Of a stretch of 40,923 nt of DNA, positions 216 to 40,010 are shown in pieces. Location of the stretch: the IMG/VR virus record IMGVR_UViG_3300047496_000087, positions 1-40,923 of that record. One strand, given 5' to 3'. The notes under the pieces are model-generated. The model searched no databases and was not told where the DNA came from. It worked only from the letters and a program-made list of their open reading frames with translations. The position numbers and the translations under genes are program-made. Each line of letters opens with the position of its first letter. Position 1 is the stretch's first letter. The stretch comes from a virus.

Positions 216-1196
216 TTAGTAAAATTCTATAACAAGGCAATAACCATTACCGCCGGTTCCGCCTGCACCAGAGTTGGTACCATTAAGTGAGCCGCCCCCT
301 CCGCCTCCGCCACCACCTGGTACAGCACCGTTACCACCAGTTCCAGCTGCAGCACCAGACTTTTGGCCACCCCCGCCACCTCCACCAGTACCTCCGGTCA
401 TTAACCCACCTGAAGTGACAAGTCCAGGGTTGCCATTACCACCTCCAATAGTCCCAGATTCAACACCACCAGAACCACCAGAAGTTATAGTTGCGCCACC
501 ATTTGAATATGTTACAGCACCACCATTGCCACCAGCTCTTTCTGTTCCAGAGTCAGCACCACCACCACCGCCTCCTCCAGTTGGTAGGAATGATTCAAAA
601 AGTCCACGTACAAGAGTTCCTACTGAATAACCATTTGTTCCAGCGGTTACTGTACCATTACCAGAGAGAACAACCGTACTTGTGGCTATATTAGAACCAA
701 AAACAGAAGGAGCAGTTCCCGTAGTAGTTGTTCCATTAATACCAGCCTTACCTCCGCTTGCACCACGATCAGCTGCTCCTAAATTTCCTAAACTAGTAAT
801 AGAACCATTTGATCCTGCTATACCATTATTATTATCTGCTGTTCTAGCTGCGCCGCCGCCTCCTCCAGCCCCAATAGTCACCGTTTCTCCGCCGCTATTA
901 AAAAAATAAGAAGGACCAGTATAACTGGTAAAATTACCTGCTTGGCCACCACCTCCACCACCAGATGTAGTTGATGTAGCTCTACGTCCAGATCCACCAC
1001 CTCCACCAGAACTATAAAGAAGAACAGTAATTGTTTTAGAATTGGCATTCTTAGTAAAGGTTCCACTACCGGTAAATGCGGTAACAAGATAGCCATTGGC
1101 GCCTGTTCCAAAGGAAACAGTACTCAGAGCACCGGAAGTTGTTTGTAGATAACCATCTGATAAGGATGCTGTATTCAAACCGGTATTAACTGACAT
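216..1196 (-). CDS. Glycine-rich (polyglycine-run) virion protein, paralog A; putative fibre-tip/adhesin protein
   Basis: 326-aa ORF with an AAGGAGA RBS 4 nt upstream of the ATG. Motifs: FTGSGTFTKN, GGGGGSGRR, ETVTIGAGGGGG, and C-terminal GGGGGGGGSLNGTNSGAGGTGGNGYCLVIEFY shared with the paralogs. Confidence 0.8.
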   Translation of the reverse strand: MSVNTGLNTASLSDGYLQTTSGALSTVSFGTGANGYLVTAFTGSGTFTKNANSKTITVLLYSSGGGGGSGRRATSTTSGGGGGGQAGNFTSYTGPSYFFNSGGETVTIGAGGGGGAARTADNNNGIAGSNGSITSLGNLGAADRGASGGKAGINGTTTTGTAPSVFGSNIATSTVVLSGNGTVTAGTNGYSVGTLVRGLFESFLPTGGGGGGGADSGTERAGGNGGAVTYSNGGATITSGGSGGVESGTIGGGNGNPGLVTSGGLMTGGTGGGGGGGQKSGAAAGTGGNGAVPGGGGGGGGGSLNGTNSGAGGTGGNGYCLVIEFY

Positions 1197-1205
1197 ACAT
1201 TCTCC

Positions 1206-2150
1206 TTAAAAGTATTCTATTACAACACAATACCCATTACCACCTGTTCCGCCAGCACCGGAATTGGCTCCATCGACAGATCCGCCTCCGCCACCACCTC
1301 CTCCACCAGGAGTACCACCATTACCACCTTTGCCAGCTTTTACAGCTTTATAACCGCCTCCTCCACCACCGCCACCTCCGCCAGGTATAAAGCCATGTTG
1401 AAAAGTTCCTCCAGCGCCTCCATTACCTGCATCACTATCTAACGCTCCTGAAGTTCCGCCAGACACCATGACCGTTCCTGCGGGATTTGAGACCGGGCCG
1501 CCCGTTCCACCCGTTCGTCCAGTGGTAGTATTGCCACCACCACCAGCCGCTCCTCCTCCAGGAAATAAATAAGAAAAATAGTTATTATTAGTATTAGGAT
1601 TACTCCCTGAATTTCCATCTATTAAACTAGAAGCGTTACCAACAATAGTTAAGCTCGCCGATTGATTAAAACACGAACTATAATATTGAGCTGATGCAGA
1701 AGTAGATCCACTTGAAGTTGTTCCACCAGTACCATAACTAACAGATGTTGGCGCCGCACCAATATTACCCAAAGTAGTAATAACACTAGGGTTACCAGCT
1801 ATTCCATTGGTATCTACAGAAGTTTGAGCTCCGCCGCCACCTCCGCCAGCTCCAATAGTTACTGTTTCTGATGATGCAAAGAAATAAGATGGTGCAGTAT
1901 AATAAACAACATTTCCTGGAGATCCACCACCACCAGAAGCAGATGCAGCAGTTGTACCTTGTCGTCCAGAACCTCCGCCACCACCTGAATTCCATAATAT
2001 GACATCGACGACCGTCGTTGATGAGTTCTTAGTCCAGGTTCCACTACCGCTAAAGGTTGTCACAATTGCGGGCATACGAGAAAGGAGGGAACCGCCCCCT
2101 CCCCAAAATGCTCCGCCTTCAATGTATCCAGGATTTTGTATAATATCCAT
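1206..2150 (-). CDS. Glycine-rich (polyglycine-run) virion protein, paralog B
   Basis: 314-aa ORF with a TAGGAG RBS overlapping the stop of the upstream fibre gene. Same motif order as paralog A, ending GGGGGGGGSVDGANSGAGGTGGNGYCVVIEYF. Confidence 0.8.
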   Translation of the reverse strand: MDIIQNPGYIEGGAFWGGGGSLLSRMPAIVTTFSGSGTWTKNSSTTVVDVILWNSGGGGGSGRQGTTAASASGGGGSPGNVVYYTAPSYFFASSETVTIGAGGGGGGAQTSVDTNGIAGNPSVITTLGNIGAAPTSVSYGTGGTTSSGSTSASAQYYSSCFNQSASLTIVGNASSLIDGNSGSNPNTNNNYFSYLFPGGGAAGGGGNTTTGRTGGTGGPVSNPAGTVMVSGGTSGALDSDAGNGGAGGTFQHGFIPGGGGGGGGGGYKAVKAGKGGNGGTPGGGGGGGGGSVDGANSGAGGTGGNGYCVVIEYF

Positions 2151-2157
2151 GATGCTC

Positions 2158-3093
2158 CTATACGTATGTTGGTGAGCCTTGGCAGCTCAATACGTTCCAC
2201 TCATTGTTAGCTACAACACAGACCATTCTTACTGAGTCACGTACTGCAGATGACTGCAGATATCCTGTAGCCCCACTGGTTGTATTCACCGTACCAAAAT
2301 GGATCTGTTGTCCAGATGCCTGAGTTATCTTCCAACCAAGGGCAGTATTGATACCTGTTACTTCTAAAATTGATCCTGTTGCTGCAGTAGTAGGAAGTGC
2401 TAATAATAGAGCAGATGCCTTGTTGCATATATAACCATTATTAACTGCAGCTGTTTGGTCAGCAGTAATCACGGTCCAGGTGAACCCGCCTGCTGCAGCT
2501 TGGAAACTTGGGGCTGTACCTGATGCGTTTGCAGTAAGCACATAGCCAGCGGTCCCTGTGACAGTAGATATCACCCCTGTAGAACTGGTGACAAGAGCAC
2601 CTTCAGCGAATGCTGGTATCTTTATACCTGCTGATCCAGCCTGCAGGTTAGTCACGCTTGCACCCGTTGTACTGCCCAAAGTGACCGTCTTCACGGCTGA
2701 GCCTGTGGCAATATTTACCGTGGTAGCGCTGGAATCATTGGAGATTGCCAGTTGGCCTGTTCCTGAATTGACGGTCAAAGAACCATTGGTTGAGGTGACA
2801 TTGAGTGCTCCTGACCCAGACTGAAGGGTAGATGCGCTGGTAGAATTTGAACTACCAAAGGTGCTTGCATGGGCCGTAGAAGTAGAGCCGACGGTTATCC
2901 CGCCGGTTCCACAATCTATTGCTACAGAACTTGTACCTGTACCGTTACCAATACTGATGGTACGTCCAGCCGAAGCCGACGTACCAATTGATATACTATT
3001 ATCAGTCGCGTCTGTACCTGCTCCAAATGTCCCTCCAGTGAAGGACACATTGGCAGCAGAAACGCTATTGTTCCAACTATTGCGGGTTGCCAT
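2158..3093 (-). CDS. Tail fibre protein (311 aa)
   Basis: The N-terminus MATRNSWNNSVSAANVSFTGGTFGAGTD... is homologous to the N-terminus of 37083..38825. The C-terminus NNGYICNKASALLLALP...GWKITQASGQQIHFG...VRMVCV...WNVLSCQGSPTYV is homologous to the C-terminus of 3103..5802. The sequence is rich in Ser/Thr/Gly beta-repeats. Confidence 0.8.
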   Translation of the reverse strand: MATRNSWNNSVSAANVSFTGGTFGAGTDATDNSISIGTSASAGRTISIGNGTGTSSVAIDCGTGGITVGSTSTAHASTFGSSNSTSASTLQSGSGALNVTSTNGSLTVNSGTGQLAISNDSSATTVNIATGSAVKTVTLGSTTGASVTNLQAGSAGIKIPAFAEGALVTSSTGVISTVTGTAGYVLTANASGTAPSFQAAAGGFTWTVITADQTAAVNNGYICNKASALLLALPTTAATGSILEVTGINTALGWKITQASGQQIHFGTVNTTSGATGYLQSSAVRDSVRMVCVVANNEWNVLSCQGSPTYV

Positions 3094-3102
3094 AGTAACT
3101 CC

Positions 3103-5802
3103 TTACACCAATGTTATATTGCCTTGGCTATTGAGTACCATCCACCGCGTAGAAGCACCAGAAACTACGCAAACCATCTCTAATGAGTCGCCAATTGCTG
3201 TTGCCTCAAGATAACCACCAACACCAACCGTTGTTGTCGCATTACCAAACAATATTGCTTGGTTAGCATTCTGTGCTATACGCCATCCAACAGCGGTATT
3301 AAGGTTGCAAATGCGTATAAGATCACCAATCGCACCAGATGCTGGCAATGTCATAGTCAGAAGACCTGCCTTATTGGCGATATAACCATTACCTGCAACA
3401 AGCGATGCGTTGACTGTCGTTACTGCCCATGCAAGTTCACCAGGAACTGCTTGCCATGTTGGTATGCTCGAAGAACCGGTTGAGGTGAGCACAAATCCAG
3501 ACGTACCAATATTAGTATCTGCCGCTTGGAATGCACCCGTTGTGGTTGTACCACCAACTATAGGAGCGTAAGCCGTTGTAGAAGTTACCCCGGTTCCACC
3601 ACCAGCGACCACAGCAGTACCGAAGGTCGGGTTAGAAGATGACCCCTGGGAGATGTAGGGTATTCCAGAGGTTGCTGATGGAGCGACAGAAGCAACTGCA
3701 TTAGAAGCTCCAGCTACAACAGTGCCATATTGTGTAATAGTTGATGCAGTAACTGCACTGGTTCCGTTACCGGTAAGCACACCAGTAAGTGTTGCAGCGC
3801 CAGTACCACCATTTTTAACAGCTAAGGTACCGGTAAGCGTTTCTGTTGTACTTGCACCTGAGAAGGTCAATCCTGTCGTACCACCAGTAAAGGTGAATGC
3901 TGCACCCGTAAGAGCACCACCACTGTCACCAGTGATAGATATAGAACTTGCTGCAGGAGCTGCCCATACTGGCAATGCGCCAGCACCAGCTGATGTAAGT
4001 ACGTTACCAGAAGATCCTAGACCAGATACGTTTTGGAATGCACCAGTTGCTGTAGTACCAGCAGCTATAACTGAGTAGGCAGTAAATGTTGTATTACCTG
4101 TTCCACCACCAGCTACTACAGCGGTTCCAAATGCTGGATCAGCGGCTGCACCTTGTGATACCAAGGGCACACCAGATGTTGCACTTGTAGCAACTGCGGT
4201 TACCGCTGCTGTTGTTCCTGCACCAACAAGTACCGCGTGATTAGTTTGTGTACCAAGTTTAGCTTTTAGATCATCAGGTGTGACAATCTTATTGGTTACC
4301 GTACCAGCTATGGTCTCAGCATTGGTAGCTAAAGTAGCACCACCAAGTTGTGAGGTAGTAGCTTGCGTTACAGTAGCGCCAAGGGTACCAGCACCGGTAG
4401 CATAGGTGATAGATCCGTCGGATGATGCCAATGTAGCGAAAACTGGGTCAGCAGCAGAAGATCCCACGAGAACCTGACCGTTGGTACCTACTGTAAGTTG
4501 CGTCAATCCTGTGCCAGATTTACCCACTTGTACCGCATGGTTGTTTGTACCGCCAACGTTATAGGTTACGGTAGAGCCAGAACCAGAAGTTGATATGTTT
4601 GCACCGCCAGCCATGGTAATTGCACCAGAAGATGCAACTGCGGTACCAGAATCGGTAACAAAGCTTGATGCGCCACCTCCAAAGAATTCATTGAAGGCAA
4701 TTGGGTCAGTACCCATGGTAGCGACCGTATCAACTTGAATCCAGAAGGTATTGGCATTTACTGTACCATTGTTTACTGGAACCAAATCACCAGGATGTAT
4801 CTCAGAAGCTTGATCATAGTCAGTAGCGCGAGTGAGCACCCACGCAACAGCACCACTACCAATGGTAGTCAGGGTATAGATACCATTTTGAGCTTGCGTT
4901 GATTGATTCTTAACGAGGATACGTGAGTTAATGGGAGGCGTTGTACCATCAAGGGTGAACAATGCCAGAGCACCGGCATTAGTTAAAGTAGCCCCAACAC
5001 CAGCTGCACCATTGGCATACGTAGCATTGAGATTGGCTGTTGTTGCAGCATAAACTGCCGTTTTAAACGTAATACCTGCAACAAGGGAATCAGCGTAGGT
5101 TTTGTTAACCCCGTCAGTTCCTGCCACAGGAGCATTTACAATCGTGATAGATGTGACTGTTGGTGTTGCGGTAAATACCGGGTCTGTTCCTGTCATACCA
5201 GAAAGTACCGTACCAGAAGCACCCACTGCCAAGGAGTTTACCCCCGTCGTCCCGGTTCCTAAAAGAACAGAGTGATTGGTAGTCCCTGCCACATTAACAA
5301 TTGGTGCCGTTGCAGTTCCGGTAATGGATATGTTAGTACCCGCATTGACTGAGGTTACAGCACCAGCAGCAGAAAGTGACTGATAGGTTGGAGCTACACC
5401 AGCGCCGTTAGAGGTCAGGACTTGGTTTGCCGTGCCCGTTGCTGTTGTAACAAGGCGCGTACCATCATAGTAAATGGTACCATCAGTAGTTGCAAAAGAA
5501 GAAGCATTAGTACCACCATTAGCTACAGGAAGGACACCAGTTACATCAGTTGTTAAATTAAGAGACCCAAAAGCAGGGTTTGCTCCTGTTGCTCCACGTA
5601 ATACTTGTCCCGTTGTACCAACGGTTATAGATGTTAAACCAGTAGTTCCCGTACCTACCTGTACGGCATGGTCTGTCGTACCATTGACGTTTACTATAGG
5701 ATCGGTTGCTGTACCTGTTATAGATATGTTTGCACCGGCATTAACAGAGGTTACCGTTCCACCACCACCGCCAGATGTCTTGAGTATACCACTTTGGCTC
5801 AT
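3103..5802 (-). CDS. Long tail fibre protein (899 aa) with internal repeats
   Basis: Repeated modules VTSVNAG.NISITGTAT.PIVNV.GTT.H.V..GTGTTG...G..G.VL.G..G.DP.F. Also repeated G.VLTS.G....P.W motifs and LATNAETIAGTVTNKIVTPDDLKAKL. A central domain of the type ...RILVKNQSTQAQNGIYTL...W.LTRATDYD... is typical of phage fibres. Confidence 0.85.
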   Translation of the reverse strand: MSQSGILKTSGGGGGTVTSVNAGANISITGTATDPIVNVNGTTDHAVQVGTGTTGLTSITVGTTGQVLRGATGANPAFGSLNLTTDVTGVLPVANGGTNASSFATTDGTIYYDGTRLVTTATGTANQVLTSNGAGVAPTYQSLSAAGAVTSVNAGTNISITGTATAPIVNVAGTTNHSVLLGTGTTGVNSLAVGASGTVLSGMTGTDPVFTATPTVTSITIVNAPVAGTDGVNKTYADSLVAGITFKTAVYAATTANLNATYANGAAGVGATLTNAGALALFTLDGTTPPINSRILVKNQSTQAQNGIYTLTTIGSGAVAWVLTRATDYDQASEIHPGDLVPVNNGTVNANTFWIQVDTVATMGTDPIAFNEFFGGGASSFVTDSGTAVASSGAITMAGGANISTSGSGSTVTYNVGGTNNHAVQVGKSGTGLTQLTVGTNGQVLVGSSAADPVFATLASSDGSITYATGAGTLGATVTQATTSQLGGATLATNAETIAGTVTNKIVTPDDLKAKLGTQTNHAVLVGAGTTAAVTAVATSATSGVPLVSQGAAADPAFGTAVVAGGGTGNTTFTAYSVIAAGTTATGAFQNVSGLGSSGNVLTSAGAGALPVWAAPAASSISITGDSGGALTGAAFTFTGGTTGLTFSGASTTETLTGTLAVKNGGTGAATLTGVLTGNGTSAVTASTITQYGTVVAGASNAVASVAPSATSGIPYISQGSSSNPTFGTAVVAGGGTGVTSTTAYAPIVGGTTTTGAFQAADTNIGTSGFVLTSTGSSSIPTWQAVPGELAWAVTTVNASLVAGNGYIANKAGLLTMTLPASGAIGDLIRICNLNTAVGWRIAQNANQAILFGNATTTVGVGGYLEATAIGDSLEMVCVVSGASTRWMVLNSQGNITLV

Positions 5803-5811
5803 CGGTTCTCC

Positions 5812-6165
5812 CTACACTTGTGAAGCGTATACAACGGTTACATAAACTGACCCAGAAGTAGGGGCACCAGACGCCTGTTTAGCATATAGTCTGTTGCCAG
5901 CTGCTTGCTCAAAGAATCCACCTTGGTCGGCTTTATTTGAACCGTAGTCATAAAGATAGAAAGCGTTAGCAGGACAGACGTCCATATCATCAACACCATT
6001 GAATGATATAAGAAGATCTTTATCTGTCAGATTAGTTACTTTTAAAATGCGTACTGGATACACAAAAGAAGTGCCAACGCCAGCATAAGTCCCAGATATG
6101 CCCCCAAAAGCAAGAGACCTAAGATTTTCATAGCGAGCTCGTACGGAACTTGAAACATTTCCCAT
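5812..6165 (-). CDS. Small structural-module protein (117 aa), function unknown
   Basis: ORF with a TAAGGG RBS, tightly packed between fibre genes. Weak similarity to 6175..6504 (ISF[ND]G ... G.[VI]Y[VL] C-terminus). Confidence 0.7.
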   Translation of the reverse strand: MGNVSSSVRARYENLRSLAFGGISGTYAGVGTSFVYPVRILKVTNLTDKDLLISFNGVDDMDVCPANAFYLYDYGSNKADQGGFFEQAAGNRLYAKQASGAPTSGSVYVTVVYASQV

Positions 6166-6174
6166 CGTAGACCC

Positions 6175-6504
6175 TTAAACGTAATAAGCTGAAAGATAAA
6201 TATTACCCGTTCCTGCCGTTCCTTTTACCGAAACATATGTACCCTTTGACCAGAGCGCTAATCTTGCAGCAGGTTGTGAATTTGTTTGCGTTTGCAGTAT
6301 AAGATCCGCACCTGCCTTGAGATATTCTTGATCAGTATGACCATCAAACGAGATGGTAACGTCAGTAGAACCGCCATTATAGATTCTGATCATAAAGCAT
6401 GATTCAGTAAATCCTGGATCTAAGTTTATAGACTGATAACTCGTAGTAAGTTGTGATGAAGGTATTTTCCCAAGCTCTTGAGCTTTTACCGAACCTTGTG
6501 CCAT
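6175..6504 (-). CDS. Small structural-module protein (109 aa), function unknown
   Basis: I chose the start at the internal ATG (6504) because AAAGGAGATACTA lies directly upstream. The track start at 6549 sits inside a hairpin and has no RBS. Confidence 0.65.
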   Translation of the reverse strand: MAQGSVKAQELGKIPSSQLTTSYQSINLDPGFTESCFMIRIYNGGSTDVTISFDGHTDQEYLKAGADLILQTQTNSQPAARLALWSKGTYVSVKGTAGTGNIYLSAYYV

Positions 6505-6547
6505 TAGTATCTCCTTTAAAGGGATGAAAAACTGTCTATATGCTATC

Positions 6548-6575
6548 ATAGCCCAAGGTTTTACCCAAGGGCTAT
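6548..6575 (-). other. Hairpin (ATAGCCC / GGGCTAT stem, containing a direct CCCAAGG repeat) at the 3' boundary of the HNH gene
   Basis: A 7-bp inverted repeat read directly. No clean U-run follows on either strand. Confidence 0.3.
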
Positions 6576-6601
6576 GAAGATGAAGGAAATGAATTACAAA
6601 A

Positions 6602-7195
6602 CTAGTTTATATCGCGCCATGTCTTTCCAGTTTTAATAGAATGAAGTGTCGTCCTAGATATATTAAAATCTTTACATATACGTTTCATCATCACGTCCAT
6701 AGATAAAAGTTTTTTTATCTCTTTAACTTGATCAATACTTAACTTTTCAACTTTATGTCTGTTCTTAGATAACTTATCACGTTGATTATCAAGAGCATTT
6801 CCTAACCATAAATGTTCAGGATTTGTACATGATGGATTGTCACAAGTATGCAGCACCCACAATCCATTAGGTATTTCACCTTTATAAATCATGTAGCTCG
6901 CCCTATGTGCCATCACTTCTTTACCTCTAAAAGTTAAACATCCATACTTCATTTTTACTTTTTTACAGCCATTCCAATTCCAGCATCCATCTTGCTTTAT
7001 AACAAACTTATTAAAAGACTTTTCGAGCTCATATATCGTATCTTGAGACGCCCATTTTTCTCTTAATTTTGTAACACTAATTGTTCCCATAGTTTTCATT
7101 TGGCATGGTTTAGAGCAAAATCTTGAAGTATTTATCTTGTCACTTCTCACTAAATATTCCGTAGAACATTGATCGCAATTTTTAGAAAGTTTCAT
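6602..7195 (-). CDS. Free-standing HNH homing-type endonuclease (HNH_3-like) with a C-terminal HTH
   Basis: Motif HRASYMIYKGEIPNGLWVLHTCDNPSCTNPEHLWLGNALDNQRD, plus an N-terminal CxxC...C..C region and C-terminal ISRTTLHSIKTGKTWRDI. The gene is visibly AT-rich compared with the flanking fibre genes. Confidence 0.85.
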   Translation of the reverse strand: MKLSKNCDQCSTEYLVRSDKINTSRFCSKPCQMKTMGTISVTKLREKWASQDTIYELEKSFNKFVIKQDGCWNWNGCKKVKMKYGCLTFRGKEVMAHRASYMIYKGEIPNGLWVLHTCDNPSCTNPEHLWLGNALDNQRDKLSKNRHKVEKLSIDQVKEIKKLLSMDVMMKRICKDFNISRTTLHSIKTGKTWRDIN

Positions 7196-18283: not shown

Positions 18284-18691
18284 TTAACGTAGTGTACAAC
18301 GCATGTTGGTGATCCAAAGGTCATTTAAGATCCTTGGAACCTCAGCAAACGTGTACCCAACTGTAATGTTTTGAGCCAATGCATCAGAGTAGATCGCAGG
18401 ACGGTAAATGAACTGCGCTGAATAGTTATCTTGTTCAACACAAGCCAATGATTCCATACCTTGTACAAAAACGTTATACACGTTATTACCAAGAGCAGAA
18501 GCATTAGGAGTGATAGAAGCAACAGAAGACACCATAAAGCGAACGTTGTTAACCGCGCCCCACTCACTTTCCGTAGCTTTTGCGCCACCTTGTGGATAGT
18601 TCCACTGTGGAATAAAGTTAGGCAAGTTATTGAGGTCTTTAACCAAGTCAGTGTGCGCTAATGCGAGGTACGCATTACGAACAGGAGCTGT
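18284..18691 (-). CDS. Major capsid protein, exon 3 (135 codons plus stop)
   Basis: Begins TAPVRNAYLALAHTDLVKDLNNLPNF... directly after the intron's terminal G, in frame with track ORF 18284..18646. The C-terminal part looks like an HK97-fold MCP (...EWGAVNNVRFMVSS...). Confidence 0.85.
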   Translation of the reverse strand, partial: TAPVRNAYLALAHTDLVKDLNNLPNFIPQWNYPQGGAKATESEWGAVNNVRFMVSSVASITPNASALGNNVYNVFVQGMESLACVEQDNYSAQFIYRPAIYSDALAQNITVGYTFAEVPRILNDLWITNMRCTLR

Positions 18692-18899
18692 CAGTCTGTT
18701 ACTTTTATGACCTATTTCTAGGCGGGGAAGCTCTTCGGCATTCCCTCACGGAGTTTCCTTCCGTGGTCAGACTATCGCATACCCTTTCGGGCCTTTCTCA
18801 CTTAGTCGTTCAGGCTGCTTGCGCTTGCCCCTTGTTACCATAGCTTGCGCTTTAGGCTTCCAAGTCAATTAGAGAAAGTTTTACTTCGGCACATAGTTT
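18692..18899 (-). ncRNA. Group I self-splicing intron 2 (208 nt, no ORF) in the major capsid gene
   Basis: P1: exon UUCGGU pairs with intron GCCGAA, with U.G at the splice site. P3: UUUCUC/GAGAAA. P7: GACUA/UAGUC. P8: GCCC-GAAA-GGGU. P9: CACGGA...UCCGUG. A further hairpin is CCUA-GAAA-UAGG. The intron ends ...AACAGACUG. Confidence 0.85.
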
Positions 18900-19130
18900 A
18901 CCGAAACGATCCATACCAACTTGTGAGCCAAGGATCATCCATGCGTTGTTTGTCAGCAACGTAGAAGTCACTTCGTCCACATCTGAAAGTGCTAGATCTG
19001 TAGGCAAGTCCCCATTTGTACCGCCTGTGCAGTTGTAGATCGATGCTGTCGATGCAAGCATGTCTCTGGTCAACTGATCCTCGGTCATACGGAGACTTAA
19101 TCCAAGCAGCTCTGCAGTTTCATTTAATAC
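18900..19130 (-). CDS. Major capsid protein, exon 2 (77 codons)
   Basis: VLNETAELLGLSLRMTEDQL...GSQVGMDRFG. Both junctions are phase 0 and the length is 231 nt. Confidence 0.85.
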
Positions 19131-19341
19131 CATTCTGTTACTTTCATGACTGCCGGATCAATCCAGTCAGCGGGAAAATCTCTTCGGATTCTCCTCTTCA
19201 TGTTGCCATGAAGATCAGACTATCGCATCCCATTTCTGGGTTTTCTCACTTAGTCGTTCACGCTGCAATTACGCTTGCGCCTTGTCGTCCGCGAGGGAGT
19301 TCCAAGTCAATCAGAGAAAATTTATAGACCCCATACATTTT
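19131..19341 (-). ncRNA. Group I self-splicing intron 1 (211 nt, no ORF) in the major capsid gene
   Basis: P1: exon GACCCU pairs with intron GGGGUC, with U.G at the splice site. P3: UUUCUC/GAGAAA. P7: GACUA/UAGUC. P8: CCCA-GAAA-UGGG. P9: UCUUCAUG-GCAA-CAUGAAGA. The intron ends ...AACAGAAUG. Confidence 0.85.
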
Positions 19342-19653
19342 AGGGTCTTGGTTTTGCAATGTTACTTGCTGGTTAATTGCAATGTACTGGCCATAGAATG
19401 ACATGGTAGCATCGATATCAACACGAGTCAAAGGCGTTGCTGGTGGGATAGCGCCGCTGGGCCCGAGAGGAACCGGTGCGGTTGGCAATCTGTCATAGCG
19501 CGCCATACGTAGGGTACGGCCACCTTTGCTTGGCAAACGTTTAGTAACAGCACCAAGCTTCATGATGAGGTTTGGTGTGCTTACTGACAATAGAACATCG
19601 TCCATTGTCTGTTGCACTGGCGCAGGCAGCAGGGAAGTAGTAGTGATCATCAC
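19342..19653 (-). CDS. Major capsid protein, exon 1 (104 codons)
   Basis: AGGAG RBS 6 nt upstream of the ATG. Translation: MMITTTSLLPAP...RMARYDRLPTAPVPL...SFYGQYIAINQQVTLQNQDP. It resembles the N-terminal part of the HK97-fold MCP family (N4-gp56-like). Confidence 0.85.
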
Positions 19654-21112: not shown

Positions 21113-21141
21113 GCATCTCCTTCATGTTGCTGCTTAATGTA

Positions 21142-21171
21142 CAAACAAAATCCCCCTTTTTCAAGGGGGAT
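21142..21171 (-). terminator. Rho-independent terminator (minus strand)
   Basis: Stem ATCCCCC/GGGGGAT with an 8-nt loop, followed on the minus strand by UUUUGUUUG. Confidence 0.7.
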
Positions 21172-21206
21172 CCACCAAGGAGAGGAAAGATCAGTGTGTT
21201 TACTGA

Positions 21207-21365
21207 TTATTTTCGTTTCTTTTTTGATTTGCCGGCTTCATTAAGAGCTATCGCGACCGCTTGGTCTTTAGACGTAACCTTAGGGCCCTTCTTAGAACCA
21301 GAATGTAGCTTACCAGCTTTATATTCTTCCATAACAACTTGTACTTTATCTTTCTTTTTTGCCAT
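21207..21365 (-). CDS. Small lysine-rich protein (52 aa from the MAKKKDKVQ start)
   Basis: Core VMEEYKAGKLHSGSKKGPKVTSKDQAVAIALNEAGKSKKKRK resembles, from memory, a widespread small bacterial/phage family of unknown function (E[FY]K.G.L.S...G.KV.S.KQA.AIALSEA). The terminator follows immediately. Confidence 0.55.
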   Translation of the reverse strand: MAKKKDKVQVVMEEYKAGKLHSGSKKGPKVTSKDQAVAIALNEAGKSKKKRK

Positions 21366-21528
21366 TTTTCTTTCTTTCTGAGCGTTCATGTTTAGCGCTC
21401 TCTTTCGCTTCGTGCTTTTTATGCTTCTTTTTTTCTATTTCTTTAATGAGTTTCTTATCCTCATTAGCTTCTTTCTTAAAATTAGCGATATCACCCTTAA
21501 GGTGCGTAACGATCTTGTTCTTAGCCAT
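21346..21528 (-). CDS. Small highly basic Lys/Glu-rich protein (60 aa)
   Basis: ORF with an AAGG RBS. It overlaps the downstream gene in another reading frame. Confidence 0.5.
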   Translation of the reverse strand: MAKNKIVTHLKGDIANFKKEANEDKKLIKEIEKKKHKKHEAKESAKHERSERKKNGKKER

Positions 21529-21589
21529 TTTAAACCTTTTTGCATCGGCATGAACCTTTGCACTTCATACATTTTGCCATTACTTCTCC

Positions 21590-21619
21590 AAAAAAAAGGG
21601 GAAGGCTACATCCCTCCCC
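21590..21619 (-). terminator. Rho-independent terminator (minus strand)
   Basis: Stem GGGGAAGG/CCCTCCCC with one mismatch, followed on the minus strand by U8 (plus-strand A8 at 21590-21597). Confidence 0.7.
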
Positions 21620-21624
21620 TCGAA

Positions 21625-21774
21625 TCATTGATTTGTTGACGAATCACGGATCCATGAATCTACCATCTTTTCAGGTGGATTAGGTTCATTTTTCTGTTGT
21701 CTATACTTAGGCGTCTTCAAGATCTCATAAGCTATCTTCATAGCCTTCTTATTAGGTCTTGGTGCTTGTGGCAT
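21625..21774 (-). CDS. Small basic protein (49 aa; below the ORF-track cutoff)
   Basis: TAGGAGTTGTT RBS before the ATG at 21774. Translation: MPQAPRPNKKAMKIAYEILKTPKYRQQKNEPNPPEKMVDSWIRDSSTNQ. Its stop abuts the terminator hairpin. Confidence 0.45.
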   Translation of the reverse strand: MPQAPRPNKKAMKIAYEILKTPKYRQQKNEPNPPEKMVDSWIRDSSTNQ

Positions 21775-21782
21775 AACAACTC

Positions 21783-22022
21783 CTAATATTTTTTAGGATC
21801 CATCAAGCGCATAAAGTCTGATGAATCAGTCTTCAATTGCTGTTCTACACGCTCATAAAGATCAGGCATTGTCGGCATATAGTTTGCATCTCTTGTAGAC
21901 CAATTCTTATGAATCACTTCAGTAGGAAGATTTGAGTAGCCGCTACGGTTATCATGTAGCATGCCACCATCTTCTTTCATGTGAGCTGATTCTTTACCGA
22001 CGCCGTACTTACGTTTAGCCAT
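21783..22022 (-). CDS. Small protein (79 aa), function unknown
   Basis: ORF with a TAAGGAGCCAACC RBS, downstream of the portal gene. Confidence 0.6.
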   Translation of the reverse strand: MAKRKYGVGKESAHMKEDGGMLHDNRSGYSNLPTEVIHKNWSTRDANYMPTMPDLYERVEQQLKTDSSDFMRLMDPKKY

Positions 22023-22128
22023 GGTTGGCTCCTTAGAAACTGCAGCTTTACCTGCAAGGTTACCCTCTATCTTTGGCCAGCTGAACCATTCGGCTGGTTG
22101 AGGCAGTTATATACTATCTAAGCTTTAA

Positions 22129-33770: not shown

Positions 33771-33960
33771 CTTTAATTTCCTCTAAATAATCCCTAATCT
33801 TCCTCACCGTCTTAAAACTCATCCCCTTCTTACTCTCAGGATCAAGCACATGCCCCATAGTAGTATGGGATAGCCCAACAAGCTTGGATAGCTCATGCAC
33901 TGATAGCCATCCATCAAAGTAAATCTTGATGATCGCATCTTTATAGTGCTTTTTGTTCAT
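33754..33960 (-). CDS. HTH DNA-binding protein (68 aa); first gene of the minus-strand block (Cro/regulator-like)
   Basis: WLSVHELSKLVGLSHTTMGHVL fits a helix-turn-helix pattern. It is adjacent to the divergent promoter region. Confidence 0.6.
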   Translation of the reverse strand: MNKKHYKDAIIKIYFDGWLSVHELSKLVGLSHTTMGHVLDPESKKGMSFKTVRKIRDYLEEIKDEVCK

Positions 33961-33974
33961 AGTAACCCTTTATA

Positions 33975-34002
33975 ATTATACACTTAGTATAACATAAATT
34001 AA
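33975..34002 (-). promoter_or_regulatory. Candidate leftward promoter
   Basis: Minus-sense TATAAT (plus strand 33975-33980) with a weak -35 TTAATT at 16-nt spacing. The -10 lies 14 nt upstream of the ATG at 33960. Confidence 0.3.
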
Positions 34003-34016
34003 CTTCATTGCAATAG

Positions 34017-34045
34017 TTGACATAGTTTAAATAGTATGCCATAAT
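34017..34045 (+). promoter_or_regulatory. Sigma70-like rightward promoter
   Basis: TTGACA (34017-34022), a 17-nt spacer, then CATAAT (34040-34045). It lies 45 nt upstream of the first plus-strand ATG. Confidence 0.6.
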
Positions 34046-34090
34046 AGTGTTAGTAGTTAATTAACCAATAACGTTTCTTAGGGGAACATT

Positions 34091-34246
34091 ATGAAAAAAC
34101 AATCATGTGGATGCTTTACGGAAGAAGAATTGATCGCTATGCATGAGCGGTCAGTGAGAGAGATGGAAAAAAGAAGAATTAAGACTCAGGAAGTGATTAA
34201 TGACCATAAAACAACTAGCAGCAAAACTACAAAAAGAGATTGATCT
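34091..34246 (+). CDS. Possible small protein (51 aa; below the ORF-track cutoff)
   Basis: AGGGGAACATT RBS before the ATG. Translation: MKKQSCGCFTEEELIAMHERSVREMEKRRIKTQEVINDHKTTSSKTTKRD. It overlaps the next gene by 47 nt. Confidence 0.35.
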
Positions 34247-34466
34247 ATCCATTGCTGAATTCAATAAAGGTCAGCAGAAGATCAAGGCTCTTTACGAACA
34301 AATTGAAGAAGTAGAAAAGGAAATGGCTGAGTTGGTATTTGACTTAGAGCCAGTAGAATCTATAGTTATTGCTCAAAATCCTACATTAGAGAAGCTATTT
34401 ACCACTTTAAAGAATGTCTACAAGGAGCATGATGACAAGACTAGAGCAACTGACAAGAGAGTTTGA
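34200..34466 (+). CDS. Coiled-coil protein (88 aa), function unknown
   Basis: AGGAAGTGATTA RBS followed by the ORF. Confidence 0.6.
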   Translation: MTIKQLAAKLQKEIDLSIAEFNKGQQKIKALYEQIEEVEKEMAELVFDLEPVESIVIAQNPTLEKLFTTLKNVYKEHDDKTRATDKRV

Positions 34467-34785
34467 TGAAGAACTAGCTAAGGTTAACACAGAATACATA
34501 GCCCTCTTTGATCAACTTGAGCCGTATAGAGGCAGAAAGTTGTCAGATGAAGAAGTAGCTACCAGCAATGACCTCATCAAGAGCATTCAGGTTAAATTCG
34601 GTGAGATGTATGCAGCATTCTATTTAATTGCTGTACGTCACAGCCATGCTGTTGCTATCACCAATGAGTTCACCACATTCTGTGAATCATTAGAAAAAGC
34701 AGGTTTCAAAAAACAGCCTGTTGAAAACGAAGTTAAAGATGGCGTGTGGCGTCCTAATGAATCACCCATTATTCTAACGGACTAG
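34414..34785 (+). CDS. Hypothetical protein (about 117-123 aa); start uncertain (34414, 34429 or 34432)
   Basis: ORF with several in-frame ATGs near AAGGAG. Confidence 0.55.
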   Translation: MSTRSMMTRLEQLTREFDEELAKVNTEYIALFDQLEPYRGRKLSDEEVATSNDLIKSIQVKFGEMYAAFYLIAVRHSHAVAITNEFTTFCESLEKAGFKKQPVENEVKDGVWRPNESPIILTD

Positions 34786-34851
34786 CCAAAACTGACCTTC
34801 TAGATATACTACAGACCAAAAAAGCTGTAGATACTCTAAAAAAGGTCACTA

Positions 34852-35535
34852 ATGGAACTCGCTCCACAAGAATACCGTTCACTTGAAATCAATCAGATAA
34901 TGATGGCTCTCGCTAAAGCTCAGGGTGCATACAAACCATTGGTAGCCAATGAAAAGGGCCCCAGAGGTATGTATGCCAACCTTGCGGCTATGATTGCATC
35001 AACTAGAGAAGCTTTATCAGGAAATGGTTTAGCATTCTACCAGTATGATGAGATCACCGACGATGGCGCTGGCGCCATTCTCATGAAGTCTATTATAGGC
35101 CATGAGTCAGGACAGTGGCTCAGTTCCATTGCCAGAATCGTTAAAATGGAAACAGAACGTGACACAGGCAGAATTGTTGAAGTCATTAGACGTAGACAGG
35201 CCATGATGTTGCTAGGAATTGCCCCATCAGAGAACGATCCTACCTTCTTTGATGACGATGGTGAGGAGCAAGCAGAATCGTTCGTTATAAGCCAAGTTCG
35301 TAAGCCTCGTACTACCAAGCCAGAAGTTAATAGAAATGATGTAGTCAATCCAGATCAGTATCAAGAATTGTTGATTGAATTGGAAGGATATGAAGATATC
35401 GCCAAAGATATTATGCAATGCTATAATATAGAAACCTTAGCCGATCTTCCACGAGAAGAATATCACAAGTCACTTATGAAAATACGTCGCATTAAGCGAA
35501 CACAAGAAGAGTACGAAAAACAGAAAAGTAGATAA
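34852..35535 (+). CDS. Second, divergent ERF-like recombinase (227 aa)
   Basis: INQIMMALAKAQGAY...GMYANLAAMIASTREALSGNGLAFYQ...IIGHESGQWL...RRRQAMMLLGIAPSENDPTFFDDDGEE follows the ERF motif order. It lacks the G.a.tY signature, so the call is weaker. Confidence 0.5.
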   Translation: MELAPQEYRSLEINQIMMALAKAQGAYKPLVANEKGPRGMYANLAAMIASTREALSGNGLAFYQYDEITDDGAGAILMKSIIGHESGQWLSSIARIVKMETERDTGRIVEVIRRRQAMMLLGIAPSENDPTFFDDDGEEQAESFVISQVRKPRTTKPEVNRNDVVNPDQYQELLIELEGYEDIAKDIMQCYNIETLADLPREEYHKSLMKIRRIKRTQEEYEKQKSR

Positions 35536-35572
35536 TATCGTTGTTGTAATCGAGTGTGACTACTTTTCTATC

Positions 35573-35611
35573 CCCCCCCGGTATCCCTAAGATACTTGGG
35601 GGGTTCGTTTT
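35573..35611 (+). terminator. Rho-independent terminator of the plus-strand operon
   Basis: Two-part stem, CCCCCC/GGGGGG plus GTATC/GATAC, followed by TTCGTTTT. It lies at the convergence with the minus-strand block. Confidence 0.75.
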
Positions 35612-35831
35612 AGCGCTTGCTCACATCCTCTAGTAGAGGTGTTTTTGCAGTAGGAACATACGGAGGCAACATTGGTGCAATATCTATTCCTGTCTCTGCT
35701 TCAACAACCACTTCCACTGCCTTTTCAAGGGCAGATTCAATAGGTGCAGGGCAATTACAACAGAACCGTGTAACGCCAATAGTCACAAGCGAGCCTGCGA
35801 TTATCAGTGATGCAACTAGAACAGCCATCAT
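35610..35831 (-). CDS. Small membrane protein (73 aa); last gene of the late block, a holin-like candidate
   Basis: N-terminal TM helix MMAVLVASLIIAGSLVTIGV followed by an acidic tail. No endolysin lies nearby, so the functional guess is weak. Confidence 0.35.
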   Translation of the reverse strand: MMAVLVASLIIAGSLVTIGVTRFCCNCPAPIESALEKAVEVVVEAETGIDIAPMLPPYVPTAKTPLLEDVSKR

Positions 35832-35851
35832 AGTAGCTCCTTCTGTAACGG

Positions 35852-37082: not shown

Positions 37083-38825
37083 TTAAAGAACTATAGTTCC
37101 TGATAATGTTAGATCTGAAGTATTGGCAAAGGCCGTATCTTTAACGATGGTAATAGTTCCTGAAGATAAAGACTCAAAATTGAAACTTGTTCCATCATAT
37201 TCACATTCGATTGTGCCAGTTGTTGTTATTGATTTAGCTCTTAATGCTACTGCCGAAAGTCCCGTACTTGGACTAAAAGATAGCCCAGTAATAGTCGCAT
37301 TTCCAGTACTAGAACCTTTACTTGATAAAACTATTCTCATGCTAAAAGCAACTATATCACCTACACGACAATATGATCCAAGTTGTGTTGTATAAGTTAT
37401 ACCCGTTGTTCCACCACCGAACTTAAGAACCGGCGTCCATGAAGTACTTGCTACATAGGTAGATAAAATATTTGATCCACCATCAAAACTAACACCAGCA
37501 GCATATACATTTGCAGCAGTTCCCACATGTCCTGTACCATTTGGAGTCAGCATAATATTCGCATTGCCACCATTCGTAGTTAGTGTAAGAGCATTACTGC
37601 CAGACTGAATTGTCGTCTGGCTTGTTGAGGTTGTAGAGCCCACGGTCGTTGTCTTCGAGCCCGCTCCGGTGCCAACGTTCACGGTTGACCCAGTTGCATC
37701 TGTCGCCAGACTTACGGTCCCGCCATTTGCCGTTATTCCAGAGAATGTCAGAGTTTGAGTAGTCCCAGATCCCCCAAATGCCAGCCCGGTAGACCCACCA
37801 GTAAAAGTAAATCCTGAACCAGATAGTGCTCCACCTGTATCACCAGTAACGGTTATATTGCCCGCTGCTGATGCTTGGAAGGTTGGGTTGGCTGAGGTAC
37901 CGTTTGAAGTCAGAACATATCCTGTCGTTGCTGGAGATATAGAAGTCACTGCATTACTTGCACCTCCAACAAGTACATCATACTGAGTTACTGGGCTAGC
38001 GGTGAATGATCCTGTGCCATTACCAGTTAGTACGCCAGTAAGGGTAGTTGTCCCGGTTCCACCATGTGATGCAGCCAAGGTCCCTACCAATGTTTCTGTA
38101 GTGCCAGAACCAGAGAATGATAATCCTGTTGCCCCAGCTGTTAATGTGAATGCATTACCCGTAAGCGCGCCACCAGTATCACCAGTCAATGATATAGAGC
38201 TTGAAGGTGAAGCCTGGAAGCTGGGCAGCGATGCTACACCATTGCTGGTAAGCACATACCCCGAGTTGTTGATGCCAGAAGAGGCATATTGAATGGGGTT
38301 GGTTGTGCTTGTTCCGCCGCAGATAGGAGCATATGCAGTTGCACCTGATAGCACAATACCGCCCGATCCTGCCTGTAAGGTTGTCGTGCTGGTTCCATTG
38401 GTTGATCCGAGCACCGTGGTCTTGTTGCCAGCGCCTGTGGCAATATTAACTGTTGTTGGATTGCCATCAGTTGAGATAAATAGGTTCCCACTACCACTAT
38501 TGATATTGAGTCCACCATTGGTACTGGTAATGTTTAAATTGCCTGAACCACTTTGTATGGTGGTGCTGGAAGTTGAGTTGGTTGAGCCTACTGTTGTAGC
38601 ATGGGCATTGGCAGAGTTACCAACCGTTATCCCACCCGTACCACAATTGAGCGCTAGCGAACTTGCTGATGTAGATGACCCAATAGTCACCGTACGACCA
38701 GAAGTTGCTGTGGTGCCGATATTTACTGCGTAATCTATGTTATCTGTGCCTACGTTAAAGGTACCGCCGTTAAATGATACATCCGCAAGGACTATAGCAT
38801 TGTTCCAACTATTACGTGTGCTCAT
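37083..38825 (-). CDS. Tail fibre protein (580 aa)
   Basis: Its N-terminus is shared with 2158..3093. The internal module SISLTGDTGGALTGNAFTLTAGATGLSFSGSGTTETLVGTLAASHGGTGTTTLTGVLTGNG is shared with 3103..5802. Its C-terminus is shared with 35852..37069. Confidence 0.85.
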   Translation of the reverse strand: MSTRNSWNNAIVLADVSFNGGTFNVGTDNIDYAVNIGTTATSGRTVTIGSSTSASSLALNCGTGGITVGNSANAHATTVGSTNSTSSTTIQSGSGNLNITSTNGGLNINSGSGNLFISTDGNPTTVNIATGAGNKTTVLGSTNGTSTTTLQAGSGGIVLSGATAYAPICGGTSTTNPIQYASSGINNSGYVLTSNGVASLPSFQASPSSSISLTGDTGGALTGNAFTLTAGATGLSFSGSGTTETLVGTLAASHGGTGTTTLTGVLTGNGTGSFTASPVTQYDVLVGGASNAVTSISPATTGYVLTSNGTSANPTFQASAAGNITVTGDTGGALSGSGFTFTGGSTGLAFGGSGTTQTLTFSGITANGGTVSLATDATGSTVNVGTGAGSKTTTVGSTTSTSQTTIQSGSNALTLTTNGGNANIMLTPNGTGHVGTAANVYAAGVSFDGGSNILSTYVASTSWTPVLKFGGGTTGITYTTQLGSYCRVGDIVAFSMRIVLSSKGSSTGNATITGLSFSPSTGLSAVALRAKSITTTGTIECEYDGTSFNFESLSSGTITIVKDTAFANTSDLTLSGTIVL

Positions 38826-38843
38826 ACTATCTCCTTAAATGGA

Positions 38844-39029
38844 TTATTCTTTAGCAGTTCTATCAGCGTAGATAAATACTTTGTTCACATCATCCCATTT
38901 GTCGCCAATATCACAGCGGCCATCTTTGCAATGAACAACCATGTGTCCTCTTGGCGGAAGGAATTCCGCGCCTTCCCAAACAACCACATTTACTACTTCG
39001 CCATCTTTAATAATTGCATGTCGTGACAT
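38844..39029 (-). CDS. Small protein (61 aa) between the Gly-rich array and the fibre genes
   Basis: MSRHAIIKDGEVVNVVVWEG... ORF with an RBS. Function unknown. Confidence 0.55.
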   Translation of the reverse strand: MSRHAIIKDGEVVNVVVWEGAEFLPPRGHMVVHCKDGRCDIGDKWDDVNKVFIYADRTAKE

Positions 39030-39038
39030 AATAACTCC

Positions 39039-40010
39039 TTAGAAATATTCAATTACAATACAATATCCTGCTCCACCAGTTCCGCCTGCACCTGAGTTGG
39101 TACCGTTGAGGCTGCCGCCGCCTCCACCACCACCGCCGCCTGGTAGGCCACCTGTGCCACCTGCTCCAGCAGCAGCTCCTGCAAACTGTCCACCGCCACC
39201 GCCTCCTCCAGTTCCACCAGTAATAAGGCCACCCGTTGTAGTTATACCAGGATTGCCATCACCACCTCTAATAGTACCAGATTCAGTTCCGCCAGATCCA
39301 CCGGCGGTTATAGTAGATCCGTTCAAAGCATAGCAGTTAGCACCACCATTGCCACCAGCTCTTTCTGCTCCAGAATCGGCGCCACCTCCACCACCTCCTC
39401 CAGTTCCAAAAAGAGATCCTACAAATAAACTTGTAGTTACTGATGAATTAGCGGCAGTTGTTCCTGCTGTATTATTTCCCGCAGCGCCAGTAGCAGAATC
39501 TGTACCAACAGTTCCCGTATATTGCACTTGATAATAATCCCCTGATCCACCACCTATAGTAGTAGTCGTACCACCACCACCACGCGATGAAGAACCATTT
39601 CCTTTGGTAGAAATGTACCCTAAGGAAGTTAGCCCTGCAACGCTTCCTGCTGTACCATTAGTTGAGTTAGTGGTTTGAGCTCCACCTCCACCACCACCAT
39701 TACCAATAGTTACTGTTTCAGAAGGACCATAAAAAAATGCTGGAACAGTATAATAGGTAACTCCTCCTGCTGCACCACCTCCACCGCCTCCTGCTGCAGT
39801 AGTAAGACCTCTTCTTCCCGAACCACCACCAGAACCACCACTCCATAAAATGGTAGTTACGACACGCGTAGATGGGTTCTTAGTCCAAGTGCCACTGGCA
39901 GAAAAATTGGTAACTAGATAACTACCAGATATCGAACTTACAAGCCCACTGACATCCACAAGGTAGCCATCAGGAAGACCACCGGTACTAACTGTATTAT
40001 TGACTGACAT
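39039..40010 (-). CDS. Glycine-rich (polyglycine-run) virion protein, paralog C
   Basis: 323 aa with the same motif order as paralog A, ending GGGGGGGGSLNGTNSGAGGTGGAGYCIVIEYF. The 3' third is roughly 75-80% identical to paralog A at the nucleotide level by eye. Confidence 0.8.
   Translation of the reverse strand: MSVNNTVSTGGLPDGYLVDVSGLVSSISGSYLVTNFSASGTWTKNPSTRVVTTILWSGGSGGGSGRRGLTTAAGGGGGGAAGGVTYYTVPAFFYGPSETVTIGNGGGGGGAQTTNSTNGTAGSVAGLTSLGYISTKGNGSSSRGGGGTTTTIGGGSGDYYQVQYTGTVGTDSATGAAGNNTAGTTAANSSVTTSLFVGSLFGTGGGGGGGADSGAERAGGNGGANCYALNGSTITAGGSGGTESGTIRGGDGNPGITTTGGLITGGTGGGGGGGQFAGAAAGAGGTGGLPGGGGGGGGGSLNGTNSGAGGTGGAGYCIVIEYF

Follow-up and report, generated by a model that had tools for sequence, protein, structure and literature searches.

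Positions 18899-18692, on the minus strand of the virus DNA analysed here (the window: the whole stretch of 40,923 nucleotides, positions 1 to 40,923 of IMG/VR record IMGVR_UViG_3300047496_000087), very probably hold a true group I intron that begins and ends at exactly these bases. The intron, 208 nt long and devoid of an open reading frame (ORF), is the second of two that split the major capsid protein gene, and its insertion point lies between codons G180 and T181 (the FG|T site). From the sequence we infer that this intron, intron 2, is excised from the RNA. The sequence statements of a preliminary description of this DNA were all checked on the minus strand.

A major capsid protein gene in three exons

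The gene begins with exon 1 (19650-19342, minus strand; 309 nt), which has its ATG at 19650 and a GGAG ribosome-binding site upstream. A tblastn search with the spliced protein placed amino acids 1-103 on 19650-19342 at 100%. Downstream lie intron 1 (19341-19131, minus; 211 nt), which belongs to the same group I family as intron 2, exon 2 (19130-18900, minus; amino acids 104-180), intron 2 (18899-18692, minus) and exon 3 (18691-18284, minus), which encodes amino acids 181-315 and the stop codon. The preliminary description had placed a 208-nt intron at 18692-18899, behind an exon 2 of exactly 231 nt and ahead of an exon 3 that begins 45 nt upstream of a 120-aa ORF (18646) and in its frame. All of this was confirmed, the intron boundaries to the base. 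The 316-aa product that it gave is, however, one residue too long: uninterrupted homologues begin with MIT..., which sets the start at the ATG at 19650 and the length at 315 aa, and 316 is reached only if a GTG at 19653 is counted. The first A is common to intron 2 and exon 3, so that a 1-nt shift of both boundaries gives an identical mRNA; the choice of 18899/18692 was set by the rule that places a U at position -1 and a G at the intron terminus.

In the ORF list the capsid region appears as three fragments only, of 131, 93 and 120 aa, and exon 3 is seen by gene callers only as an ORF made of its last 120 codons. The same contig has been assembled in another dataset, and the capsid gene is annotated there as split pieces too. 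The three exons share one frame and are open over 100% of their length, and neither exon 2 nor exon 3 has a ribosome-binding site, or a start codon at its true beginning. Translation that runs from exon 2 into the unspliced intron 2 meets a stop after 15 codons; an unspliced transcript would yield a capsid fragment ending ...GMDRFGKLCAEVKLSLIDLEA. The absence of an intron-borne ORF, also claimed in the preliminary description, was borne out: the longest stop-free stretch has 53 codons, the ORFs listed inside or overlapping intron 2 have 33 and 60 aa, and no endonuclease-like ORF is found. No second capsid gene is present in the window, and the rest of the 41-kb phage gene set is otherwise intact, with portal, scaffold-like and tail genes.

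Other features of the window were also observed. The ORFs at 216-3093 and at 37083-40010 (both minus) have N-termini that are alike (MSVNTGLNTASLSDGYL vs MSVNNTVSTGGLPDGYL, and MATRNSWNNSVSAANVSFTGGTFGAGTD vs MSTRNSWNNAIVLADVSFNGGTFNVGTD), which suggests that paralogous Gly-rich, tail-fibre-like gene modules lie at both window ends. Although the genome is elsewhere densely coded on the minus strand, the segments 33771-35851 and 21113-22128 have no ORF on that strand that reaches 90 aa; the former has two plus-strand ORFs, 34414-34785 and 34852-35535. Neither segment gave a match with the intron models R1 and R2 used below.

The spliced 315-aa protein matches PHROG 1357 (major head protein) with residues 2-309 in one stretch (6.9e-25), and Pfam PF25209 (Phage_capsid_4) with 27.7 bits vs a cut-off of 27. 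In a collection of 5.8 billion proteins it has 2004 relatives, the best of which are uninterrupted chains of 314-315 aa with 61-82% identity and 99-100% coverage; some of them carry the database name 'N4-gp56 family major capsid protein'. Alignment with 19 uninterrupted homologues revealed no gap or duplication at either junction, and residues V104, L105, G180 and T181 are invariant in it. An AlphaFold2 model was obtained from a 115-sequence alignment (pLDDT 78.4, pTM 0.74) and used instead of one made with only 20 sequences, which was unusable (pLDDT 38). In the predicted fold, a long helix begins at residue 103, which is the intron-1 junction. The top PDB matches found by Foldseek are capsids of phage N4 (9lbz/9e99; TM 0.70-0.74, E ~5e-17), and further matches are other HK97-fold capsids, including HK97 itself (2ft1/1ohg; E ~3-4e-9). 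No PDB sequence was matched when the capsid alignment served as a profile. The spliced product is an N4-gp56-like HK97-fold major capsid protein.

The preliminary description had proposed a check by AlphaFold for the HK97 fold, and had named the loss or doubling of a segment at GMDRFG|TAPV as the finding that would speak against an intron. The Foldseek matches to N4 and HK97 capsids answer the first point, and the ungapped homologue alignment and the capsid fold match together answer the second in the negative. No isolate is close to the source phage, which is uncultured: the best isolate match of the capsid protein shows less than 28% identity, and none of 50,697 phage records was matched by megablast with 20 kb of window sequence.

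Ribozyme core and covariation

The last six bases of exon 2, UUCGGU (18905-18900; here and below, minus strand), make up the 5' strand of P1 and pair with GCCGAA (18890-18885), the terminal U forming a U.G pair at the 5' splice site. Immediately ahead of GCCGAA stands UGU (18893-18891), which pairs with the ACA of exon 3 in a P10 of 3 bp; the two elements constitute the internal guide (18893-18885). P3 joins CUUUCUC (18878-18872) and GAGAAAG (18799-18793). Between its strands are found P4 (CUUG/CAAG) around P5/P5a (GCC..AGC-GCAA-GCU..GGU) at 18864-18831, P6/P6a (GGGC-AA-GC-GCAA-GC-A-GCCU, 18830-18812), whose loop is the place of ORF insertion in relatives, and the P7 5' strand GACUA (18807-18803), which is connected by the linker AGU to the P3 3' strand (the three elements span 18807-18793). 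The P8 hairpin GCCC-GAAA-GGGU (18792-18781) is followed by J8/7, AUGCGA, and by the P7 3' strand UAGUC (18774-18770; with J8/7, 18780-18770), which is complementary to 18807-18803 and suitably placed for a pseudoknot with it. Peripheral hairpins occupy 18765-18711 and comprise P9 (CACGGA...UCCGUG, 18765-18747), P9a (GGGAA..CGAAGA loop..UUCCC) and P9b (CCUA-GAAA-UAGG, 18722-18711). A conserved 3' tail, UCAUAAAAGUAACAGACUG (18710-18692), ends with the terminal (omega) G at 18692. Intron 2 has neither P2 nor large peripheral domains, and the conserved P9a loop CGAAGA and the tail GUAACAG are without an assigned partner. All 38 modelled pairs are canonical, and the minimum free energy fold reproduces every non-pseudoknot helix and was equalled by none of 200 shuffles (z-score -3.09).

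The same P1, with its U.G at the splice site, had been read in the preliminary description, together with P7, P8, P9, an extra CCUA-GAAA-UAGG hairpin and the intron 3' end (...AACAGACUG, terminal G at 18692), and each was found at the positions given above. P3 had been described as UUUCUC/GAGAAA; the helix is present, but it extends over 7 bp rather than 6. P4, P5/P5a and P6/P6a (both with a GCAA loop), P9a and the 3-bp P10 are additions of the present analysis. The architecture had been said to match that of intron 1 with another guide, and it does: the guide is GCCGAA in intron 2 and GGGGUC in intron 1, where it faces the exon sequence GACCCU, and both introns are matched by model R2. The intron 1 junction, QDP|VLNE, is ungapped in the homologue alignment.

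The Rfam model RF00028 (Intron_gpI) scored intron 2 at 24.7 bits, where the gathering threshold is 50; in a search of 1 kb the E-value was 6e-4. The alignment covers the full model length (positions 1-253), lies on 18747-18935 and places P3, P4-P6, P8, J8/7 and P9 as in the manual structure. At the gathering threshold, Rfam found nothing in the whole window; in 14 related loci it found no intron at cut-off, only a tRNA. On intron 1, RF00028 gave no match even at E <= 10, and a queA match in the E-value scan of that intron was discarded as chance. A single RF00028 model covers the very diverse group I class poorly. Because the score of intron 2 is below the cut-off, its group I structure was tested directly.

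IMG/VR was scanned with a pattern of three conserved core segments in which both P7 strands were fixed, and at least 120 stretches matched. In 880 kb of loci retrieved by the pattern, a covariance model from six well-bounded introns found 153 intron copies. Among 136 distinct relatives, 97.6% of the cells pair, vs 69.9% after shuffling and no more than 44.6% after the partners are slid; compensatory changes on both sides occur in 39 of 43 pairs, and the covariation score is 0.622 vs 0.16 (shuffled) and at most 0.085 (slid). Both-side changes affect every pair of P3 (7/7), P6/P6a (6/6) and P8 (4/4), with 95-99% of the cells paired. The six pairs of P1 all covary with the exon context across the family, and the last one is U.G in 88 of the 126 informative members. 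A U at the 5' splice site is seen in 109 of 136 members and a terminal G in 116 of 136. In P7, 99.7% of the cells pair, two of the five pairs are constant and three differ in no more than 1-2 sequences; this low variation is largely explained by the collection of the loci with a pattern that fixes both P7 strands, and it leaves the predicted P7 pseudoknot with weak covariation support. Family-wide, P10 is marginal (1.56 pairs of 3 vs 1.36 shuffled). The two introns of the window differ in this element, which reads UGU/ACA in intron 2 and UAU/GUA in intron 1, 3 bp each.

Since the alignment of 136 sequences had been fitted to the proposed structure, the test was repeated free of that structure, using RNAalifold on a plain MAFFT alignment of 24 relatives from outside the window. 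P1, P3, P4, P5, P6, P8, P9 and P9a were recovered de novo; 34 of 44 pairs were compensatory, and the last P1 pair was U.G in 21 of the 24 sequences. Covariance model R2 was made only from these 24 related metagenomic introns, without the window sequence. When run on the whole window it gave two matches only, which are the two introns, end to end: 18689-18906 for intron 2 (199 bits, E 8e-46) and 19128-19348 for intron 1 (208.5 bits, E 5e-48). With R1 and R2, intron 1 reaches 208-222 bits; intron 2 (235 bits with R1, 199 with R2) is among the highest scorers of the family. The end-to-end R2 match and the covariation in 136 distinct relatives uphold the group I identity that the preliminary description had assigned.

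Proposed splicing route, alternative readings and spread of the family

The chemistry of group I splicing, as reviewed in PMC3984707, would apply to intron 2 in the following manner. In the late transcript, the intron would fold into its P1-P10, P3-P9 core without P2, and the guide GCCGAA would bind the exon sequence UUCGGU, setting the U.G wobble at the 5' splice site. A free guanosine held in P7 would attack that site. The guide bases UGU would pair with the ACA of exon 3 (P10), and the terminal G 18692 would enter the G site; the 3'-OH of exon 2 would then attack after G 18692, giving ...GAU CGU UUC GGU|ACA GCU CCU... (predicted ligated junction: ...CGTTTCGGT|ACAGCTCCT...). Removal of both introns would restore the 315-aa capsid protein. 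Metagenome contigs were searched for the precise ligated junction of exons 2 and 3; none contained it, and no intron-less twin or cDNA-like contig came to light.

Three other readings were weighed. One is that the group I intron is real but needs a protein cofactor, from phage or host, in order to splice, or splices only conditionally; it would in that case delay or throttle capsid synthesis and not be phenotypically silent. We consider this unlikely. Nothing in the sequence calls for a cofactor, and no maturase-like ORF lies within or adjoining intron 2. The intron is admittedly small, without P2 and large peripheral domains, its P9a loop and GUAACAG tail are partnerless, and two introns have to be removed to make a capsid protein that is required in bulk. 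However, GNRA loops are present (GCAA in P5a and P6a; GAAA in P8 and P9b), and such loops are typical of self-folding group I RNAs.

A second reading, that intron 2 is a decayed relic that does not splice and the capsid gene a pseudogene in a defective phage, could appeal to an RF00028 score under the threshold, but is very improbable: the modelled helices are all canonical, the R1 and R2 scores rank among the best of the family, the three exons remain in frame and fully open, and this is the sole capsid gene of an otherwise intact 41-kb phage gene set. Separate ORFs such as those reported by gene callers would also be expected if the insert were no intron at all, but an assembly artefact, or else an intergenic spacer or another structured RNA standing between capsid fragments that are translated one by one; this can hardly be entertained. 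Exons 2 and 3 lack translation starts, each homologue is one chain of 314-315 aa, and the insert shows both covariation and the topology of a group I intron. Independent assemblies have it at the same codon, and the contig itself was assembled in another dataset too. The homologue alignment, the covariation and the R2 match effectively refute this third reading. An intein is ruled out by the in-frame stops and the RNA covariation of the insert, and a group II intron by size and structure.

The FG|T site is filled by the same group I intron in five diverged relatives (loci L069, L038, L087, L092 and L031). These copies share the guide arrangement TTCGGT|AAA...GTGCCGAA and lie in genes whose capsid products have 57-81% identity. 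Identity with intron 2 is 82.7% for the copy in L069 and only 67.9% for intron 1; intron 2 thus represents a site-specific lineage, and the possibility that it is a recent duplicate of its neighbour was rejected. The site of intron 1 (QDP|V) is occupied also in L008 and L020. Among the 80 capsid genes closest by protein similarity, 74 are without an intron of the intron-2 family and the remaining six have one or two introns elsewhere, after aa 300 or after ~aa 11. Intron-less alleles read TTYGGNACN at the FG|T site.

The family, mostly without ORF, is present in at least 120 IMG/VR stretches. Among the pattern-retrieved loci, 38 of 150 intron copies interrupt genes for homologues of the window capsid protein, and at least 15 different codons of that capsid family are occupied. 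Three to four family introns are found in the capsid homologues of L031, L034, L085, L074, L021, L020 and L092. In L031 (IMGVR_UViG_3300002930_001379), one capsid gene, at 4638-7091, contains four introns, two of which are separated by a micro-exon of 27 nt (NIEGEDKFG). The intron-rich capsid gene of L020 is preceded, at a distance of ~0.4 kb, by a tRNA gene (413-484, plus strand; 58 bits with Rfam tRNA). Some relatives have P6-loop ORFs of 55-124 codons, several of them Cys-x-x-Cys-rich, that run into the ribozyme core (~10760-11130 in L092; ~5795-6030 and 6210-6380 in L031). When compared with Pfam, the intron-borne ORFs of relatives yielded no homing endonuclease; there was one DUF551 match, to an ORF in another intron of L031, and the rest was noise.

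Related inserts were also detected by blastn in a P22-coat-like gene (MW202674) and in the ribonucleotide reductase (RNR) gene of Roseobacter phage CRP-118. The first is a family intron at 2984-3215 of MW202674.1 (L001), in a gene annotated as two 'P22 coat protein' CDS and a 'hypothetical protein'; its 5' splice site is not placeable by eye. The second is a family intron at ~2996-3400 of OR420741.1 (L002), in a gene annotated as two 'ribonucleotide reductase' CDS. Nitratidesulfovibrio phage SRB7757 (L003) has a gene interrupted by an intron of the same family at 2475-2711. In 185,579 species genomes, the core pattern occurred in 13 MAG contigs only and in no isolate genome, which indicates that the intron family is essentially phage-borne. 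The 13 contigs (L205-L217) come from very different phyla, one being from a Methanobacterium MAG, and are probably mis-binned viral contigs, so that they permit no host assignment.

No homing endonuclease is encoded in intron 2. Its arrival was probably due to DNA-level recombination or homing between co-infecting relatives, possibly aided by an endonuclease acting in trans. A free-standing HNH endonuclease gene (6602-7195, minus; 197 aa; Pfam HNH_3, 3.2e-9, and zf-His_Me_endon) is found among the tail genes, 11.5 kb from intron 2, and is a candidate for a trans-acting homing enzyme. A wider speculation, which we hold to be rather doubtful, concerns the family as a whole: ORF-less introns with site-retargeted guides, at 15 or more capsid codons (up to four introns and a 27-nt micro-exon per 0.95-kb gene) and in other phage genes, with no recognisable intron-encoded endonuclease, might spread independently of endonucleases, for instance by reverse splicing into transcripts followed by recombination, or else by means of free-standing trans-acting endonucleases such as the HNH protein of 6602-7195.

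Significance and comparison with known phage introns

An essential capsid gene is broken here into three fragments by gene callers, and the same happens in the deposited relatives MW202674 and CRP-118. As a consequence of split gene calls and of the Rfam miss, capsid-based classification and marker-gene surveys will miss or truncate such genes. Annotation based on Rfam will overlook the intron-2 family, and covariance models R1 and R2 recover its introns cleanly. A 41-kb phage can thus retain two small group I introns at once in its most strongly expressed late gene. With many natural variants, a 208-nt ribozyme is also tractable for studies of splicing efficiency and of intron spread without endonucleases.

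Phages have long been known to harbour group I introns (PMC3984707, PMC12350094). The capsid-gene intron of mycobacteriophage LittleE has ~820 bp and a LAGLIDADG-like endonuclease ORF, and its splicing was established by RT-PCR and N-terminal sequencing; the minor-tail intron of BAKA has 265 nt and is ORF-less (PMC3706429). A capsid-gene intron of lactococcal phage Tuc2009 is cited in the same paper. Like intron 2, these introns split a highly expressed virion gene, have a U at the exon end and a G at the intron end, and are missing from close phage relatives; the BAKA intron resembles intron 2 also in its lack of an ORF. LittleE and BAKA, however, have single introns proven by RT-PCR, whereas the window has two ORF-less introns of one family, known from sequence. 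When intron 2 was compared with the phage collection by blastn, the matches did not include the LittleE, BAKA or Tuc2009 introns.

The classical phage group I introns are those of T4 td/nrdB/nrdD, the SPO1 DNA polymerase gene and Staphylococcus phage Twort (PMC3984707), and they favour genes of nucleotide metabolism and DNA replication (PMC12350094). Two introns in the Twort RNR gene are the subject of a reference listed in PMC3984707. Classical introns and intron 2 have in common the ribozyme class, the splicing chemistry (predicted for intron 2), the insertion at conserved codons of conserved genes and an early in-frame stop past the 5' splice site. The former, however, often carry homing endonuclease genes, and intron 2 carries none. 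Most classical phage group I introns belong to subgroup IA2 and possess P7.1/P7.2 and P2, in contrast with intron 2, where P7.1/P7.2 and P2 are lacking. Multiple introns are also found in Twort orf142, which has three. Capsid-gene, ORF-less and multiple-per-gene phage introns are each already known. Less ordinary is the intron family itself, which is abundant in uncultured phages, falls below the Rfam threshold, is mostly ORF-less and reaches four introns per capsid gene (L031).
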